Positions 1,969-11,720 of a DNA stretch of 64,000 nt are shown here, one piece after another. The notes under the pieces were generated by a model. It was not told where the DNA came from. It ran no database searches and saw only the letters and a list, made by a program, of their open reading frames with translations. Location of the stretch: the NCBI RefSeq assembly GCF_041248615.1, contig NZ_CP158426.1; one strand, written 5' to 3'. A program made the translations under genes and the position numbers. The DNA comes from Escherichia coli (GTDB taxonomy: Bacteria; Pseudomonadota; Gammaproteobacteria; Enterobacterales; Enterobacteriaceae). Positions within the stretch are counted from its first letter, which is position 1, and each line of letters begins with the position of its first letter.

Positions 1969-2445
1969 ATGAAACTCATCAGTAATGATCTGCGCGATGG
2001 CGATAAGTTGCCGCATCGTCATGTCTTTAACGGCATGGGTTACGATGGCGATAATATTTCACCGCATCTGGCGTGGGATGATGTTCCTGCGGGAACGAAA
2101 AGTTTTGTTGTCACCTGCTTTGACCCGGACGCGCCAACCGGCTCCGGCTGGTGGCACTGGGTCGTTGTTAACTTACCCGCTGATACCCGCGTATTACCGC
2201 AAGGGTTTGGCTCTGGTCTGGTAGCAATGCCTGACGGCGTTTTGCAGACGCGTACCGACTTTGGTAAAGCCGGATACGGTGGCGCAGCGCCGCCGAAAGG
2301 CGAAACCCATCGCTACATTTTTACCGTTCACGCGCTGGATGTAGAACGTATTGATGTCGATGAAGGTGCCAGCGGCGCGATGGTCGGGTTTAACGTCCAT
2401 TTCCACTCTCTGGCAAGCGCCTCGATTACTGCGATGTTTAGTTAA
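1969..2445 (+). CDS. ybhB: PEBP/YbhB-family protein
   Basis: 158-aa ORF with RBS AGGAGG upstream; last host gene before attR. Confidence 0.9.
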   Translation: MKLISNDLRDGDKLPHRHVFNGMGYDGDNISPHLAWDDVPAGTKSFVVTCFDPDAPTGSGWWHWVVVNLPADTRVLPQGFGSGLVAMPDGVLQTRTDFGKAGYGGAAPPKGETHRYIFTVHALDVERIDVDEGASGAMVGFNVHFHSLASASITAMFS

Positions 2446-2535
2446 TCACTCTGCCAGATGGCGCTATGCCATCTGGTATCACTTAAAGGTATTAAAAACA
2501 ACTTTTTGTCTTTTTACCTTCCCGTTTCGCTCAAG

Positions 2536-2550
2536 TTAGTATAAAAAAGC
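2536..2550. other. attR core (lambda 15-bp common core, reverse orientation)
   Basis: Exact match to reverse complement of GCTTTTTTATACTAA, flanked by host sequence on the ybhB side and lambda P-arm sequence inside. Confidence 0.88.
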
Positions 2551-2694
2551 TGAACGAGAAACGTAAATGATATAAATATCAATATATTAAATTAGATTTT
2601 GCATAAAAAACAGACTACAAAATACTGTAAAACACAACATATGCAGTCACTATGAATCAACTACTTAGATGATATTAGTGACCTGTAACAGAGC
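2551..2694. promoter_or_regulatory. attP P arm (Int arm-type, IHF, Xis/Fis binding region) retained at attR
   Basis: AT-rich sequence adjacent to the core that matches my recollection of the lambda P arm. Confidence 0.6.
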
Positions 2695-2695
2695 A

Positions 2696-2737
2696 TTAGC
2701 GCAAGGTGATTTTTTGTCCTCTTGCGCTAATTTTTTG
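2696..2737 (+). terminator. tI/sib-like rho-independent terminator in the P-arm region
   Basis: Perfect 10-bp stem TTAGCGCAAG/CTTGCGCTAA with 15-nt loop followed by TTTTTT. Confidence 0.55.
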
Positions 2738-3227
2738 TCAACTCACTGGGTTAGTTGAATTTACAACCATGCTCAGTATCTCGATAAGCGCAGGGAGATG
2801 ATGCAGTGGTGGGCGGACTGGCTTGATGAAAGTGTGCTGTAATCCTCATATCCAACCTAAGAGATATGCACAATTTTGTGAATAAGATATTGAGAATTAG
2901 CAAAAGTTTTATTTTGCGTATCATCAATTCAGAATACAAAGTCACATGCTAATGTTCTGCATTGGTATCTTTTGCTTATCCATGTCTACATTATCGCCAA
3001 AATAATAGGTTTTGCCTATCAATTATTTGAATTACTTCCATGAAATTATAACGCACTTGTAATTTTTGATTATTTTTACCTCTCAAGTGTTTTGTTTCTT
3101 CTATCTCTTTGTATTTTTAGCGAAAGTATGCCATATTGCATTCTAATATAACGTGGCGTTGTTTCTGTTTAATGATTTAAATAGTTCAACATAATATTTG
3201 CTAACAAATTATATCCAAGCAAATCAT

Positions 3228-4373
3228 ATGATATTATCATTACAATATATTAGAGGAATAGCATCATTACTTGTTGTTTTATTCCACTTCAGATTCTTGC
3301 TAAATGAGCACTACTCTCAGAAAGATTTGGGTGACCTATTATTTGGGAATGGGCTGTCTGGAGTTGATATATTCTTCATATTAAGTGGATTTATCATCGT
3401 ATACTCAACAAGAAAGAAGGAAGTTAATGATACTTTCTCATTCTCAATTAGAAGAATATTTAGAATATACCCATTACTAATCACATGCTGTTGCATGTAT
3501 TACATAATAAACACTCAATTTCTAACCTATGCTACAGTTGAAAACTTTAGAACCTTACTTATTTCCATCATTCCATTAAATATAAACTGGAATGAAGGCG
3601 CTCCATTCTTTGCCTATAATCTTTTGTACCCGGCCTGGACGATAACATATGAAATTGGTTTCTATGTTTTTTTCGGGGTATCAATGTCTATTTCGCATAA
3701 ATACAGAACAATTATCTGTTCTGTTTTTATAATCATGGTGGTCTCATTTACACAATACTATGTAAATGGAAATATATCATTTTCAGGTGATGTTAGTGCA
3801 GGGTTATTTACAGATAACTGGTTATTAGGATATACAAATGTTATTACATCTCCAATGATGTATGAATTCGTTATTGGGATGTTTCTTTCTGAAATATTTA
3901 CAAACATCAACGAAAGCAAAAGTATTAAAAGGATACTTTCAAAGTATTCGCTTCAAATACTATGGATTTCATGTGGTATATCCATAATATTATTCATTAT
4001 CCAGCGACCTTATGGGCATGGATTGAATGGATTTGGGACTATGGCGATGATACTTATTGCATCATCATTAGTATATGAATACTGCAATATAACACCCAAA
4101 ATAAAAATATTTAATTTCCTTGGTGAAATATCATATTCTTTATATCTAATTCACGCCGTGATACTTGCTTTGTTCTTCTATTATAAGGCAGACCTTGCTG
4201 AAATTGGCATAACTGGTGGATTTTCTGTGTTTTTTTCCTTGGTTATTATCTCAATAACTGCATCATATCCAATATATATTCTCATTGAAAAGCCAATGAT
4301 AAATATAGGTAAACGTTTAATTGACAAGAGAAATAAGAGCATTAACAAAAAAGAAACCGAAATAACAGCGTGA
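3228..4373 (+). CDS. integral membrane acyltransferase, family 3 (putative O-antigen/polysaccharide O-acetyltransferase)
   Basis: Very hydrophobic multi-TM protein; N-terminal R/H motif YIRGIASLLVVLFH typical of acyltransferase family 3; ATG at 3228 chosen over the track's TTG at 3198; AT-rich codon usage. Confidence 0.7.
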   Translation: MILSLQYIRGIASLLVVLFHFRFLLNEHYSQKDLGDLLFGNGLSGVDIFFILSGFIIVYSTRKKEVNDTFSFSIRRIFRIYPLLITCCCMYYIINTQFLTYATVENFRTLLISIIPLNINWNEGAPFFAYNLLYPAWTITYEIGFYVFFGVSMSISHKYRTIICSVFIIMVVSFTQYYVNGNISFSGDVSAGLFTDNWLLGYTNVITSPMMYEFVIGMFLSEIFTNINESKSIKRILSKYSLQILWISCGISIILFIIQRPYGHGLNGFGTMAMILIASSLVYEYCNITPKIKIFNFLGEISYSLYLIHAVILALFFYYKADLAEIGITGGFSVFFSLVIISITASYPIYILIEKPMINIGKRLIDKRNKSINKKETEITA

Positions 4374-4410
4374 TAATGACAAAGTTAGTGCCGGGATACC
4401 CCGGCACTAT

Positions 4411-5748
4411 TTAATCTATTTCGTAAGTGACAGTGATTATCACTTCTGCATTATTACCCAAAACATTTTGATATATATTCATATTACCTGATAATGTAGT
4501 TGCTCCAGTAAGAGTTATATAACTACTATTTGCATCAACCCTTGGAAGTAAAGCGGTAACTGCTGTTGTTAAATTATTATAGTAGCCTGTACTTCCAACA
4601 TATGCAGCTTTATTGCTTGATACATATGGTAACCCTCCAATTCTGAAACCATCTCCTGACCCAATTAAAGTTATACCAAGGTGACATGTTGCCGTTATGA
4701 TATTGCCACTCCTGACATAATTTCCTTTCTGCTGATAATATGTGGCATTACCACCTACAGTCGGAATCCAAACTCCAGTTTCTATATCACCACATGACCA
4801 GTCTTCTGCTGTTGTTAGTTTTCCAGTAACAATAAATTTACTTCCACCACCAGAATTATAAGGAACAAAAATTGGATTTATTCTTGCATAAGTGTTACCG
4901 GTCTGCTCATTAAGATCATTTCTATCAATAAGAACTTGACCATTTTCGAAGTTTGAAATCTGGCAGTCTGTTACACTCCAGTCTCTTAACTTCACATCAG
5001 CATCCATGACACCAATAAGCTTACCAGCATTACCAATTTTTTCTTTATGCATATTTACATACACATTTCTTACCGTAACAGACTGAGGGAACAGATAATT
5101 AGCAGGATTAGTTTTATCACTTAAAACAGATATTACCCAAGGTCTGTATTGAGTACTTACTTCACAATAAAATCCATCAATAAGCGTTCCAGATGCCGCT
5201 GGCCCAAGTAGTATTCCACCTGTAGAGTGATGCGCACTACCTCCAATTACTCTCCCCTTAACGCAGTTAATATAGGCAAAACATCCTAAATCTTGATTGT
5301 CATAGGCTGACATAGCACAGTCTCTAACTGTTACTCGAGAATTTCCTCCGTCATAAGCTGAGCCATCAGTTTTCTTACCAACTATTGATATAAAGTTACC
5401 AATAGCAACTCGACTATAAAAAGTTTTTTTATAACACCCCTCAATTAAAATATCCCAGTTTTCAAACTGAGCATATATATCATAAATGCTGGCATTCCCA
5501 TAATCTATGAAATCACAATATCTTATTTTCGGCGTATAAACGGCACTTTTTATCTTTATACCACCTAATGCTCTCTCCCCACCTGTGAATCTAATGCCAG
5601 TAACGGTGTAATCGCCTTGATAGAAATTATCTGCGGTAGGATTATTTTCGTCAGAATCATCACCCAATATAATAGCAAATTCACTCCCTGAATAATTAAT
5701 TGTCGCCCCCTTATTTGAATATATAGTTACAGGTCTTATAAACTCCAA
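4411..5748 (-). CDS. beta-helix-like protein of unknown function (possible tailspike/depolymerase-like domain); lacks an ATG start, possibly frameshifted or truncated
   Basis: 445-codon ORF whose first codon is TTG; Gly/Asn/Thr/Val-rich repetitive sequence; in-frame upstream TGA; upstream out-of-frame ATG (5831) separated by an A7/T7 tract. Confidence 0.45.
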   Translation of the reverse strand: MEFIRPVTIYSNKGATINYSGSEFAIILGDDSDENNPTADNFYQGDYTVTGIRFTGGERALGGIKIKSAVYTPKIRYCDFIDYGNASIYDIYAQFENWDILIEGCYKKTFYSRVAIGNFISIVGKKTDGSAYDGGNSRVTVRDCAMSAYDNQDLGCFAYINCVKGRVIGGSAHHSTGGILLGPAASGTLIDGFYCEVSTQYRPWVISVLSDKTNPANYLFPQSVTVRNVYVNMHKEKIGNAGKLIGVMDADVKLRDWSVTDCQISNFENGQVLIDRNDLNEQTGNTYARINPIFVPYNSGGGSKFIVTGKLTTAEDWSCGDIETGVWIPTVGGNATYYQQKGNYVRSGNIITATCHLGITLIGSGDGFRIGGLPYVSSNKAAYVGSTGYYNNLTTAVTALLPRVDANSSYITLTGATTLSGNMNIYQNVLGNNAEVIITVTYEID

Positions 5749-6140
5749 AGAATTACTTATCAGATACTCTCCATAAGGAAAAAAATCTCAACTGGTGGTG
5801 AGTACTTTGGTCTGGAGTTTACGTAATTCATAATATTGATTACACCAACATCATAGATAATCGCCACCTTCTGGCGAGGAGCTCCTGATGCAATTAATCG
5901 CCAGGCCTACGCCCATTATTCATGGGTAAATTTTGGACGGAGCCCCCAATTCCATCCTCAATTCTCCCTCGCACTGAGGAGTAGTAAGTGCAATTATTTA
6001 AAAAATCGCAAACAGAATATTATCATTTATTCTTGCATTCTGTTAATTAAAACCACACATAAAAACGTTGATACTTGATAAGTAAGTAGAGTATTATTAA
6101 TGGTTTTAATAACGAACCTTTTAATCATGAGAAGCCTCAA

Positions 6141-7166
6141 ATGACTAGTACCAATAACATAACAAGAAAAAAAATGGATGGAGTAACAATCTTAAGATTT
6201 ATAGCTGCTTTTTATGTGTTTATTTTTCACATTAACATGAGAGTCCCCGTTAATTTTGGAGAGCTTATTAATAAAACCATTAGCAATGGCGTCATTGGCA
6301 TGAGTATTTTCTTCATGCTTTCTGGTTTTGTTTTGACTTATAATTACTATGGTTCCTTGTCAAACAATTACTTCAGGAAGCGAATAGCAAGAATATTTCC
6401 AGCCTATTTATTTTGTGGGCTTTTAACCCTCCCATTTTTGTTATCCAGCGATGCAAGCTTTTTAAAAATGATTGCAAGCATATTCTTGTTTGTTACTGGA
6501 ATGCAATCATGGATTTATCAGACCTTCGATTTTTGGAATTTTAGCGGTACCTGGTCAATATCAGTGGAATTGTTTTTTTATGCCCTGTTTCCATTTTTGA
6601 TAAAAAACATCAACAAAAACAATGTAATTTATGTTTTACTTTTTTCATATTTATCTTCAGCATTATTAATCCCATTATCTGATATAATTCAGGGACCTGT
6701 AGTTTGGTCCGTATATTACGCAACTCCAATATACAGGTTACCAGAATTTGTGGTGGGCGTCTGTATCGCAATACTTTTTTTAAATGGCTATCGTGTTAAC
6801 CATTATACATGGCTATTAAGCATTTTATTATTTCTGTATGCTACCACCCAGCAAAACAATAACTCCATGGGGGTGAACTATCTCACAATTCCTGCGATAT
6901 CAATTATGTTATTGCACCTGGCAAAAATCAACATCAAAAACAACATTGCAAACAGAGCGATCATTTACTTTGGAGATATAAGTTATTCGTTTTATTTGAT
7001 GCAATTACCTATATTATATTACCTGGATCATAATAAAAACTCATTTATTCTTAACTATGGTCTTTTTAGCTGGCTTGTACTTTTTGTTATTAATACTGCA
7101 ATGGCATCATTATCTTATCACTTTCTGGAGAAGAACGATAAAATCAGAAAAATAATTACATCCTGA
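6141..7166 (+). CDS. integral membrane acyltransferase, family 3 (second copy, divergent sequence)
   Basis: 341-aa hydrophobic protein with motif ILRFIAAFYVFIFH; AT-rich. Confidence 0.7.
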   Translation: MTSTNNITRKKMDGVTILRFIAAFYVFIFHINMRVPVNFGELINKTISNGVIGMSIFFMLSGFVLTYNYYGSLSNNYFRKRIARIFPAYLFCGLLTLPFLLSSDASFLKMIASIFLFVTGMQSWIYQTFDFWNFSGTWSISVELFFYALFPFLIKNINKNNVIYVLLFSYLSSALLIPLSDIIQGPVVWSVYYATPIYRLPEFVVGVCIAILFLNGYRVNHYTWLLSILLFLYATTQQNNNSMGVNYLTIPAISIMLLHLAKINIKNNIANRAIIYFGDISYSFYLMQLPILYYLDHNKNSFILNYGLFSWLVLFVINTAMASLSYHFLEKNDKIRKIITS

Positions 7167-7167
7167 T

Positions 7168-7193
7168 TTATTAGGGGGGTACCCCCCTAATAA
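7168..7193. terminator. 26-bp perfect palindrome, candidate bidirectional terminator between convergent genes
   Basis: TTATTAGGGGGGTACCCCCCTAATAA lies between the stop of the + strand acyltransferase (7166) and the stop of the - strand tail fiber assembly gene (7208). Confidence 0.5.
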
Positions 7194-7207
7194 TACACCA
7201 CATAATT

Positions 7208-7603
7208 TCAACGTATTATCTCTGGCCTTTCTGGCCAGGTTATTTCTGGAATTAAGGACAAATCCACTGACATTAAATTATTAACATATTCCTTCCATAA
7301 CAAAAGATTGTTCTTGTTATTTTCACTTATAATACCGAGTAACAAATCTGACTGCCAGTTCATAATTAAACCATTAGCACTATCCAGCAGACACTGTCTT
7401 TCATTCTCTGCCTCACGAAGTAATTCATCATGTGTTTTTGGCGGCTGCGTAGGTGACGAAAGCTTTCCCTTATCATAGAACCAACCAATTCTTACATTAT
7501 CGGATACAGGTATAACTAACGCATTAGTTGGTTGCCAGGCACTCTCACCATCCCATACCGCAATATTGGTAACAACACCATTTTCTATAACGGCATAGTT
7601 CAT
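7208..7603 (-). CDS. tail fiber assembly protein (Tfa-like chaperone)
   Basis: Protein MNYAVIENGVVTNIAVWDGE... resembles the Tfa family N-terminus; immediately downstream of the tail fiber gene with TGATG overlap. Confidence 0.7.
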   Translation of the reverse strand: MNYAVIENGVVTNIAVWDGESAWQPTNALVIPVSDNVRIGWFYDKGKLSSPTQPPKTHDELLREAENERQCLLDSANGLIMNWQSDLLLGIISENNKNNLLLWKEYVNNLMSVDLSLIPEITWPERPEIIR

Positions 7604-8712
7604 CACGCATACTCCCAAATGATTGCAATACCAGCCATTCCGCTACCTCCGGCACGCTGCTGCGTCGCTCCACCGTAGACACAGGCACCACCGCCTCCAC
7701 CACCATGGCCATTAGCATTAATACCTTCGCCTACAATGGCTTGTGACCCAGCCCCCGCACCAAGGATTGAATCGCCGCCAGGCCCCCCCATCGCCAGACT
7801 GCCGGAATACCGAACGCCTGGTGAGCTATAACCGCTTCCAGACCCGATAATATTTGCACCTGTAAATCCCGGCTCAGTATATGCTCCATACGGACCAACA
7901 ACCCCTGGAGCAGTTCCTTCAGCAAGAACATCCCCACCAAGGCCACCTTTGGCAATTATGGTATTGCCGAAAGAGGTTGTTCCCCCGGGAGCACCAACCG
8001 ACGCACTTGCACCAGTGCCACCATATCCGATTGTCACAGTAGTTACGGTTGGATTATCCACGCGAGCTTTAACATACTCCCCGGACATCCCCCCGCCACC
8101 ACAAGCAGCATTATTGGGATAACCGACCTGACAACCACCACCGGCCCCACCACCACCAACAATTTCAACAATAATAAATTTTGTGCCTTTTGTCGGAGTG
8201 TATGTACCTGAGCTTTTAAACACCTGACACTGTATAAGCCTCCCGGAGCCATCTCCCAAACCAAGGTATGCGAGAATGTCATCAATAGTATTTTTGCCGA
8301 TAATATCACGGCCTACCTTAGTGAGGTCGGTCTGCGCAGCCTTATCTGTGCCAGTGAAATACGGTAGCTTATTTGCACCTGTCGCCAGTCCGGCCAGAGC
8401 CGTCAACGTGGCATCAAGCGCCTGATAATCCTTACCGAATGCAGAAGACATTTTGGTAATGAATCCATTCAGGTCGCCATCATCCAATACATCCAGTCCG
8501 CTTTTGTTTGCTGTGTACTGTGCAAGTGCTGCAGCAATAAAGCTGGCCTGCCGAATAACCTTATTGACTTGCGCACTGGAGGCTTTCCCTGCTGTAAATC
8601 CGGATAAAAGCGCGGGCAACGCTTCCCATTCCTCCTGCGATATAACATTGGCATTTCGATCCGTTGCAAACGCTTTAAAGTCATTTTTCGCCATCAGAGT
8701 AATACTCCCCAT
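7603..8712 (-). CDS. tail fiber protein with glycine-rich C-terminal domain
   Basis: 369 aa; conserved fiber N-terminal region then GGxGG-rich repeats; follows baseplate genes. Confidence 0.7.
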   Translation of the reverse strand: MGSITLMAKNDFKAFATDRNANVISQEEWEALPALLSGFTAGKASSAQVNKVIRQASFIAAALAQYTANKSGLDVLDDGDLNGFITKMSSAFGKDYQALDATLTALAGLATGANKLPYFTGTDKAAQTDLTKVGRDIIGKNTIDDILAYLGLGDGSGRLIQCQVFKSSGTYTPTKGTKFIIVEIVGGGGAGGGCQVGYPNNAACGGGGMSGEYVKARVDNPTVTTVTIGYGGTGASASVGAPGGTTSFGNTIIAKGGLGGDVLAEGTAPGVVGPYGAYTEPGFTGANIIGSGSGYSSPGVRYSGSLAMGGPGGDSILGAGAGSQAIVGEGINANGHGGGGGGACVYGGATQQRAGGSGMAGIAIIWEYA

Positions 8713-9374
8713 GCTCCTACATCAAAACCACTGATGAATTCGTTATCCATATCAAAACCAAAAAATTTTGAGCCTTCCGATGGGGTTTCCACCGAAGGTG
8801 TTTCAATGCCACCCGCCCATACCCCGGCAGCTTTTACTGTGAGATACCCCTGTTTAATTGCCGCAATTAACTCACGCGATACATCTGAAATATCAGTATC
8901 AGGAAAGACCCAGACCGATATCGTCATGTCCTGGTTATCGACTATCTGCATTCGCAGTCCGGATCCTACTGTCGCCGCGTCAAGAATTGCTGGAAGCGAA
9001 TCATTCCGTCCGTCCCAGTTATTAATCGCAATCTTCGCTTTAAGGATGACACGATAAGTTTCATCGCTGAGGTACATGTATCCGGAATCAGGATCGTATG
9101 GCCCCTGCCATACACCCTGATCATATCCAAGCCCGTCGGTATCCCAGCTGAAATAGACACCTGAGATAGGCTGGCTGACAACACGGCTACGTCCGATCCA
9201 CAATCCAAGAATGTCAAGTTGCACACCAACCGCAGAGTCAATATCAAATGCAGTAATCAGCCCTCTGGTGGCAGCCGCAACATCAATAAGCGGCCGGGTC
9301 ATCAGATCAACATGTGCAAGAAATTTAGGTTTGGTGGCGTGGTAGTTCGTGATCAGTTCGGTGTATTTGCTCAT
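8694..9374 (-). CDS. baseplate/tail protein (gpI or Mu gp48-like)
   Basis: 226-aa ORF between the baseplate J-like gene and the tail fiber gene; position-based. Confidence 0.55.
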   Translation of the reverse strand: MSKYTELITNYHATKPKFLAHVDLMTRPLIDVAAATRGLITAFDIDSAVGVQLDILGLWIGRSRVVSQPISGVYFSWDTDGLGYDQGVWQGPYDPDSGYMYLSDETYRVILKAKIAINNWDGRNDSLPAILDAATVGSGLRMQIVDNQDMTISVWVFPDTDISDVSRELIAAIKQGYLTVKAAGVWAGGIETPSVETPSEGSKFFGFDMDNEFISGFDVGAWGVLL

Positions 9375-10570
9375 GACTCCACCGTTATAACGATATTTTC
9401 CGGTGTACAGGACGCAGATTCGTTGTATCTGATATCAATGTTTGATGACGACAAAGCCCCCGGGGATTTCCCAATCGTCAGTTCCTGAATATCGTAATAG
9501 CGTGCATTCCCGCCACTCACCACGCCAAGATTCGCCGGTGAGTAAATGCGACTTAAAAGGACCGAATCACCAATCATCAGACTATTGATATAGTCGGAAA
9601 TAGCCTGCTGGATCTGCTGCCCTATCTGTGAGGTATAACCCGTAAAAACTTTTAATTTAATCCGGGCATAAACAGGTACATCACTGGAACGCGAGAATTT
9701 GATTACATGGGGATTGCCGTATTTATCCGGAACCGTAACGGATGTTGTACCGTGAGTGGCTGTCCCCTGGCCTTTATTCCCTCTAATAGCCTGAGCAATA
9801 TCCGTCACATCACCGCCATCCACAATTACAGCAACAGAGTGTGGCGGTAACCCGTTACCGTCCTCCGAACCAGTATCGTTTTCATAGAGTTTGTGGCGGG
9901 TTACACCGGTAACATTAGAAACAGCACCATCCAGTGCTTCAAATGGGGTTATTGATGGCAACGCAACACTTTGCGACTGGCGGATACGTAACTCCGCATC
10001 AGTTTCTGCTGGAGTGCCTACAGTAGCTGCAGCAGGATTGGTTACCGAAACCCAGCCACGGGTTGGCGTATTAATTTCAGTGATAGTTCCAGCCAGCGCC
10101 GCCACTGCACCACTGACGGAACATTTTGCGGTCACCATCACTGTACCATCCACGCCGACCACCACTGAAGCAGGCAAACGCCATATCACATTATTACCAT
10201 CTTTCACGCTGCCATTAATGATGGTTGTTCCGGCAGTTCCTGTAAGAAGCAAATCAACCGTAGAATTCGTCGCGCCTTTACGTGAAATACCATTTATTTT
10301 CACGTTACTGGTCAGCGCAGCCCCATAGCCGGTTGCCGGTGAAAAACAGTTGTAGACAGTTATCGCCATATTATTGGCATCATGAATCGCCAGCGCCATC
10401 AGAGCCACCATCTGGCCGTCTTTGCTGTCCGGTTCGAGGTAGGCATCACTGCCATAAATCTGCTGAAAATAGCTAATCAGGGTGCTGAGTATCGTCTGAT
10501 AATCAGGCGCACTGATCCCCTCCGCGGTTACCTTTGCAGATAAACCGAGAGAATCAAGGTTCAGAGCCAT
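9371..10570 (-). CDS. baseplate J-like protein
   Basis: 399-aa ORF in conserved W-J-I order of contractile-tail baseplate clusters. Confidence 0.7.
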   Translation of the reverse strand: MALNLDSLGLSAKVTAEGISAPDYQTILSTLISYFQQIYGSDAYLEPDSKDGQMVALMALAIHDANNMAITVYNCFSPATGYGAALTSNVKINGISRKGATNSTVDLLLTGTAGTTIINGSVKDGNNVIWRLPASVVVGVDGTVMVTAKCSVSGAVAALAGTITEINTPTRGWVSVTNPAAATVGTPAETDAELRIRQSQSVALPSITPFEALDGAVSNVTGVTRHKLYENDTGSEDGNGLPPHSVAVIVDGGDVTDIAQAIRGNKGQGTATHGTTSVTVPDKYGNPHVIKFSRSSDVPVYARIKLKVFTGYTSQIGQQIQQAISDYINSLMIGDSVLLSRIYSPANLGVVSGGNARYYDIQELTIGKSPGALSSSNIDIRYNESASCTPENIVITVES

Positions 10571-11694: not shown

Positions 11695-11720
11695 AAAAAA
11701 CCCGCCATCCGGCGGGTTTT
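11695..11720 (-). terminator. rho-independent terminator downstream of the lipoprotein gene
   Basis: Stem CCCGCC/GGCGGG with loop ATCC, flanked by A6 on one side and T4 on the other (T6 on the reverse strand). Confidence 0.6.

Follow-up and report, generated by a model that had tools for sequence, protein, structure and literature searches.

A 26-base perfect palindrome, TTATTAGGGGGGTACCCCCCTAATAA, splits cargo from virion genes in an Escherichia coli prophage, and it probably specifies an RNA stem-loop that an acyltransferase moron on one side and the tail operon on the other, transcribed towards each other, have in common at their 3′ ends. That transcripts end at this palindrome, and the mechanism by which they would do so, we infer from the DNA sequence. 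The palindrome occupies positions 7168–7193 of the window, by which we mean the whole stretch of DNA analysed (64,000 nucleotides). The window is 100% identical to E. coli NRZ14408 (NZ_LT599825), and its prophage sits between ybhB/bioA and the remaining chromosome.

The initial annotation had described a perfect inverted repeat centred on GGTACC and lying between two convergent stop codons, and both statements hold. The letters match exactly over 13-nt arms that meet at the central TA of GGTACC, and the symmetry ends where T7167 opposes T7194. The acyltransferase stop TGA is at 7164–7166 on the plus strand and the stop of the tail-fibre assembly gene tfa at 7208–7210 on the minus strand; within the 41-nt stop-to-stop spacer, the palindrome begins 1 nt past the former and finishes 14 nt short of the latter. 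It is the longest inverted repeat of the 64-kb window, in which the next perfect palindromes have 7-nt arms and no second copy is present at up to three mismatches. There were 0 matches at up to three mismatches in 100 dinucleotide-preserving shuffles, and 13-nt arms appeared in 0 of 200 local-composition shuffles, the longest arm there being 12 nt (3 of the 200). The palindrome is real and non-random, beyond chance. An Rfam scan of 2400–9400 at E ≤ 1 returned nothing at the palindrome, and its single copy in the window, together with its restriction to this junction in E. coli genomes, sets it apart from REP and other dispersed-repeat families. By eye only, the GTTRRRY core sites of an integron attC were not seen in it.

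The gene that ends just before the palindrome (6141–7166, plus strand) encodes a 341-aa membrane acyltransferase, matched to O-acetyltransferases in PHROG, and has 31–34% G+C. It is the second Acyl_transf_3 cargo gene of the island, the first lying at 3198–4373 on the plus strand. Upstream of it, a sigma-70 promoter-like site, TTGATA-18-TATTAT (6068–6097, plus strand), is a consensus match only, agreeing at 10 of 12 positions, and the number of such sites in the scan equals the chance expectation. On the other side of the palindrome, tfa (Caudo_TAP; 7208–7618, minus strand) is the last gene of the tail operon; the tail-fibre gene (7603–8712, minus strand) adjoins it, and the baseplate genes come next. 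A similar architecture is found within the island, where a G+C-rich hairpin, TAGTGCCGGGATACCCCGGCACTA (4386–4409, both strands; 10-bp stem, −18.8 kcal/mol, T-rich tails), is placed between the first acyltransferase gene and a convergent 445-aa open reading frame (4411–5748, minus strand) without a match in Pfam or PHROG. The product of this reading frame resembles, as judged by eye, a beta-helix tailspike or a fibre-like protein; the frame is flanked by the two acyltransferase genes and lies downstream of an invertase remnant.

The palindrome had also been taken to mark the place where the AT-rich island abuts the tail genes. It does divide the two sets of genes, but it is not a compositional edge. 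G+C content is 29–39% over the island (2500–7500) compared with 47–57% in the tail genes, and at finer scale it stays at 26–34% from the island across the palindrome to about 7350, is 41–44% to 7600 and reaches 59% past 7600; the palindrome therefore lies inside the AT-rich domain and not at its edge. The tfa gene is itself split by composition, its 3′ half (about 7208–7350) being as AT-rich as the island. Only the 5′ part of tfa is common to other E. coli tfa genes (the matches H108 and H109 align only over 7407–7640 and 7540–7640, respectively), and the low-G+C import seems to include the C-terminal half of the tfa chaperone.

Morons, units of promoter, gene and terminator with deviant G+C, are described as having initiation and termination signals on their flanks (PMC3851460). 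The acyltransferase gene resembles such a moron with its terminator in several respects: its G+C content deviates from that of the surrounding phage genome (31–34% versus about 50%), a promoter-like site lies upstream and a stem-loop downstream, and it sits beside tail-fibre genes at the end of a prophage. It differs in that the stem-loop here has no adjacent U-tract, and in that the low-G+C block takes in the 3′ half of tfa instead of forming a clean hairpin-bounded insertion.

Transcribed from either strand, the core palindrome, which itself has no strandedness, is predicted to form a 10–11-bp RNA stem (UUAUUAGGGGG/CCCCCUAAUAA) closed by a 4-nt GUAC loop. Folding gave −16.3 kcal/mol for this core hairpin on both strands, and −17.5 kcal/mol (plus) and −22.2 kcal/mol (minus) for the core with its flanks. 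Past the stop codons, the junction thus offers the stable, G+C-rich RNA hairpin expected of an intrinsic terminator and, between two converging genes, the kind of hairpin-encoding spacer element that characterizes the class of sites found by SEnd-seq. Hairpin elements of this class, lying between convergent E. coli genes and unlike intrinsic terminators, are reported to end transcription both ways (Ju et al. 2019, as described in bioRxiv 10.1101/2022.10.23.513370). The palindrome shares with them a hairpin-encoding element at the overlap of convergent units that is not a classical intrinsic terminator; membership of the class is defined by mapped 3′ ends. The palindrome differs in lying in a prophage, where expression of the two units is probably separated in time (lysogeny versus the lytic phase), so that polymerase collisions may be rare. 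A literature search for 3′-end maps of E. coli B/BL21 found none.

We collected junction haplotypes from E. coli genomes, IMG/VR contigs and metagenomes, in searches anchored on the acyltransferase protein or the flank and not on the palindrome. Among 5,426 complete E. coli genomes, 65 contained the junction, with acyltransferase, palindrome and tfa together in 65/65; these counts are not independent, as the 56 near-identical genomes include many E. coli B derivatives. The acyltransferase and tfa were each detected in 68 of the 5,426 genomes (at least 80% coverage in 65) and were always adjacent. At least three prophage backbones carry the junction: the window’s myovirus-like prophage beside ybhB; a defective prophage of E. 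coli B/BL21/REL606, integrated at that site too, with a palindrome sequence identical to that of the window (NC_012967, around 795,300); and a prophage of IAI39-type strains with ymfQ/stfP-type baseplate genes, beside tRNA-Pro/yejM. The 42-nt junction had no match in the GenBank phage collection and the cassette is absent from sequenced phage isolates, among which only the constant part of the fibre gene was matched (vB_EcoM-type phages). Species-representative genomes contained no match to the exact 28-nt flank pattern, and the six loci from a metagenome scan were all this junction. A relaxed-pattern scan of IMG/VR gave 27 loci, 8 of them this junction and 19 sharing only the 16 specified bases; by our own rough estimate, not a computed one, 19 unrelated loci is about the number that chance would supply. 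In IMG/VR and the GenBank phage collection, the same palindrome is not a recurring motif at module junctions elsewhere.

Among the eight haplotypes recovered, the outer arms TTATTA/TAATAA are invariant (0 of 12 columns vary), while the G/C centre exists as seven alleles: the majority allele GGGGGGTACCCCCC and the alternatives GGGGGGCCTCCCCC, GGGGGACCTCCCCC, GGGGAGCCTCCCCC, GGGGGGGTCCCCC, GGGGGGGTACCCCCC and GGTGGGTACCCCCC, two of the centre alleles coming from single metagenome assemblies and so possibly being errors. The element measures 25, 26 or 27 nt, and all haplotypes fold (−11 to −18 kcal/mol), one metagenomic haplotype (L042) with a stem mismatch. Perfect symmetry with a GGTACC centre is confined to one allele group. 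Loci L004, L005, L006, L042, L044 and L051 carry the centre variants at the equivalents of 7174–7187 in a background that is otherwise 97–99% identical. Homopolymer slippage, hairpin-loop mutagenesis, IS-related events or, in some cases, assembly errors could be the source of this hypervariability. The eight haplotypes contain no compensatory double changes in the stem, which is invariant and in this respect proves nothing. Since the alleles differ in centre and spacing but retain the fold, a hairpin is favoured over a dimeric DNA-binding site.

The G/C centre also has a consequence at the DNA level. GGGG-GGTACC-CCCC (7174–7187) is an exact IS186-family target, GGGG(N6)CCCC, and one of three N6 sites in the window. 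According to PMC5009759, IS186 targets read 5′-GGGG(N6/N7)CCCC-3′, number only 54 in the E. coli genome examined there and receive the element either way round. In two genomes, strain E4 (L003 2655–4010) and strain FDAARGOS_1250 (L055 1155–2517), an IS421 element (IS186 family, about 1.35 kb) lies inside the palindrome, in opposite orientations, with junctions GGGGGGTACCCC|CATAAGCGC...GCGCTTATG|GGGGTACCCCCC. Both flanks of each element retain GGGGTACCCC, so that these are actual insertions in either orientation with the core duplicated; the target duplication is 6–10 bp, a range that the G and C runs prevent from being read exactly. The sequences point to two independent insertions, or to one that was followed by inversion. 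The site is like known IS186 hot spots in its exact motif and in having received IS421 both ways round, a pattern also reported where IS186 targets are palindromic, and unlike them in that the comparison describes the fate of the palindrome site and no function. IS186-family targeting is a consequence of the sequence and not its function. An origin of the palindrome as an IS186 footprint was also considered and rejected: two retained duplications would give the 24-nt GGGGGGTACCCCGGGGTACCCCCC, which was not seen. That the palindrome might be a protein-binding site, as had been proposed, survives only as its use by an IS186-family transposase in two genomes; a dimeric DNA-binding protein is argued against by a centre that differs among relatives in both sequence and length (25, 26 or 27 nt).

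Equivalent junctions in related cassettes carry hairpins of their own. Rb-23-type cassettes, on the same backbone type, differ in their tfa, and their acyltransferase is 57% identical at the amino-acid level; only 11 nt separate the stops there, and a 17-nt palindrome, GAGCCTAAATTAGGCTC, spans the stop codon and gives a much weaker hairpin. A strong hairpin is therefore not required at this junction. The Rb-23 cassette (L034 2814–5890; also L046 and L047) includes an invertase remnant and a different fibre tip, in a DUF2612/baseplate-J backbone near torT. In another cassette (L048, 54% amino-acid identity), the spacer holds an unrelated 16-bp stem. Phage Mu has AAGGCCCGATAGCGGGCCTT in the 28-nt spacer between its convergent U and U′ genes. 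A hairpin recurs at this junction position in unrelated sequences and with very different strengths; since relatives of the window’s junction keep the arms and the hairpin, and the diverged cassettes and Mu carry unrelated hairpins, structure is favoured over a sequence-specific site. The comparison also suggests that fibre tip, chaperone and acyltransferase diversify together.

These data bear on the rival that survives best, in which the palindrome has no selected function and is a neutral by-product, such as a template-switched quasi-palindrome or a hitch-hiker, its sole real effect being to attract IS186-family elements. The centre is indeed hypervariable, with 7 of 15 columns variable compared with 12 of 110 outside it (Fisher p = 0.002), and the restriction of perfect symmetry to one allele group, the weak hairpin of the related cassette and the tolerance of two IS insertions would all fit. 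We nevertheless regard this explanation as rather unlikely, as every haplotype has a stable hairpin with 12 invariant arm positions, hairpins occupy the same junction in unrelated sequences including Mu, and arms of 13 nt far exceed what chance would give.

Less probable still, and quite doubtful in our judgement, is the proposal of the initial annotation that the palindrome is a strong bidirectional terminator, that is, a canonical Rho-independent one whose G6/C6 stem alone releases RNA polymerase from either side. A strong G+C stem between convergent stops speaks for it, and A/U-rich flanks would make a weak RNA:DNA hybrid. The core hairpin, however, has no U-rich tract immediately 3′ on either strand: the sequences that follow the G/C stem are UAAUAAUA (plus) and UAAUAAAU (minus), each with 3 U in 8 and with AA at positions 2–3. 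The nearest U-rich tracts are 14–27 nt off on the minus strand and, on the plus strand, occur only after a second hairpin. A consensus terminator scan did not call the palindrome, although it called three other hairpins nearby, at 4386–4409 (on both strands), 7221–7239 (plus) and 11697–11720 (minus). We set aside a score of the d’Aubenton-Carafa type, because its formula mishandles stems with paired A/U tracts and was negative even at the textbook-like 11697–11720. Of the proposed transcript-end role, what stands is a strong hairpin on both strands between convergent stops, and what lacks support is bidirectional intrinsic strength.

The two strands differ in what surrounds the core. An extended imperfect inverted repeat (7154–7207, read on the minus strand; 27-nt arms, 78% complementary) can, with G-U wobbles, form a 54-nt hairpin from 7207 to 7154 on the minus strand (−21.2 kcal/mol); on the plus strand the same repeat folds at −17.4 kcal/mol and the outer helix is absent. 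Directly 3′ of the extended hairpin on the minus strand is a U-rich tract, AUUUUUCUGAUUUU (7140–7153), whose bases, read on the plus strand, encode the last acyltransferase residues. A more canonical terminator layout, the 54-nt hairpin followed by AUUUUUCUGAUUUU, is thus present only on the tail-operon (minus) strand, where it would be intrinsic-terminator-like, and in a longer minus-strand fold the minimum-energy structure combines the core with a small second hairpin in preference to the weak extended outer helix. The extended outer pairs are kept on the minus strand in seven of eight haplotypes. Four single transitions fall in paired columns, and all four keep minus-strand pairing, by wobble or restored Watson–Crick pairs, while three break plus-strand pairing; pairing-preserving transitions of this kind have a chance of about 0.06, a weak significance, and three of the four are silent or stop-to-stop in the acyltransferase frame.

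On the plus strand, the scan called a second hairpin, CUGGCC-UUUCU-GGCCAG followed by UUAUUUCU (7221–7247; −12.1 kcal/mol). Its hairpin (7221–7239) lies 28 nt past the palindrome, antisense in the last tfa codons (W-P-E-R-P), and the stem is kept among haplotypes, a single C-to-U change giving a G-U pair on the plus strand. It is a candidate terminator of the acyltransferase transcript.

Since the core lacks a U-tract and the strands differ, the junction is better read as a hairpin 3′-end element, closer to canonical on the tail-operon strand, than as a strong bidirectional intrinsic terminator. Under our preferred explanation, a stem-loop shared by two convergent 3′ ends, the acyltransferase moron presumably has a promoter of its own that is active in the lysogen, and the other unit would be the prophage tail operon, whose last gene is tfa. 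Most likely the hairpin marks both transcript ends, protects them and restricts antisense read-through into the neighbouring gene, and its action is probably asymmetric between the strands. On the minus strand, the core may nucleate the 54-nt hairpin, with AUUUUUCUGAUUUU directly after it, in an intrinsic-terminator-like manner. On the plus strand, the core without a U-tract may serve as a pause site or barrier and keep out 3′-exonucleases, termination being completed by the second hairpin and its U-rich tail 28 nt further on.

The initial annotation had also raised the possibility of a recombination scar at the junction between island and tail genes. The joints lie elsewhere. A Gin/Cin/Pin-type crossover site, ATCTCCCAAACCAAGGTATGCGAGAA (8251–8276, no strand), is located inside the tail-fibre gene, where Mu gix aligns. 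By BLAST, the block common to IAI39/T309-type prophages covers 5841–8275 of the window at 98% identity, unbroken across the palindrome, and the block common to REL606 extends to 8121. IAI39/T309 homology ends at the central dinucleotide of ATCTCCCAAACCAAGGTATGCGAGAA, the sequences being identical up to ...AAACCAAGG and unrelated beyond, and the C-terminal tip of the tail fibre (8275 downwards) belongs to the block common to other prophage types. The left end of this block (5841) falls within the remnant of an invertase C-terminal HTH_7 domain (about 5760–5960, minus strand), which contains ...RLIASGAPRQKVAIIYDVGV..., has in-frame stops and frameshifts, and is an HTH pseudogene in the RefSeq annotation of relatives; for the query, its two stops were replaced by Q. 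Neither the N-terminal catalytic part of the invertase nor a second crossover site remains. The true module joints are thus the crossover site at 8251–8276 and the invertase remnant at about 5841, 1.1 kb and 1.3 kb from the palindrome, and fibre tip, tfa and acyltransferase form a block bounded by the invertase site.

A DNA-level role, whether as a joint or scar between cargo and tail genes or as a binding site for a dimeric regulator or recombinase recalling hix/gix, has perfect dyad symmetry, a length equal to that of invertase crossover sites and a decayed invertase gene 1.2 kb away in its favour, and is nonetheless highly improbable, because the flanks are co-inherited in all 65 junction genomes and homology runs straight across, the genuine AAACC-NN-GGT core is at 8251–8276, where homology breaks, the palindrome is not repeated in phage collections, the length of its centre shifts by ±1 bp in relatives and the AT-rich domain continues past it. 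As a hix/gix-type site in particular, it was tried and rejected. With 26 bp, two 12-bp half-sites and a 2-bp core, it resembles gix/hix/cix by length and symmetry only; its centre is GGGGGG-TA-CCCCCC and not AAACC-NN-GGTTT, and neither an inverted second copy (up to three mismatches, in the window) nor an intact invertase (only the decayed HTH_7 domain) was found.

The gene order at this locus is that of the Mu G segment: a fibre gene with an internal crossover site, tfa, a convergent gene and an invertase, the acyltransferase occupying the place of Mu U′/S′v. As in Mu, a G+C-rich palindromic hairpin fills a short spacer after the tfa stop and faces the convergent gene. The hairpin sequences are unrelated, the stem here being a G6/C6 run with A/T arms, and the partner here is the acyltransferase and not U′/S′v. 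In position, the palindrome matches the hairpin at the junction of Mu-type invertible fibre segments, and because the invertase has decayed and no second crossover site is left, the former invertible segment would now be frozen. It is tentatively possible, and not our leading view, that this was once a Mu-G-like invertible tail-fibre segment, now fossil, with the palindrome as its conserved junction hairpin and an O-acetyltransferase in place of the S′v/U′ cassette. Fibre tip, chaperone and surface-modifying enzyme would then make up a crossover-site-bounded module that moves as a unit between unrelated backbones and integration sites, with the G4-N6-C4 core as a recurrent IS186 landing pad and a centre made hypervariable by hairpin-loop or IS-associated mutagenesis.

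Read as a shared 3′-end stem-loop, the palindrome would be one more intergenic stem-loop ending a prophage cargo gene, a known kind of feature, and the idea of a recombination joint at this position is corrected. As a strong hairpin that has no U-tract and lies between convergent genes, it would offer, in a strain common to every laboratory, a handy natural example on which to examine bidirectional termination of a non-canonical kind. The more notable by-products are an apparent fossil invertible segment, with an acyltransferase replacing the alternative fibre genes, and an IS186 hot spot: an exact IS186/IS421 target, which has taken two insertions in nature and is present in the E. coli B/BL21 laboratory strains, where IS186 is active. 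The true module boundary, a crossover site within the fibre gene, shows how fibre tip, chaperone and O-acetyltransferase travel together between prophages.
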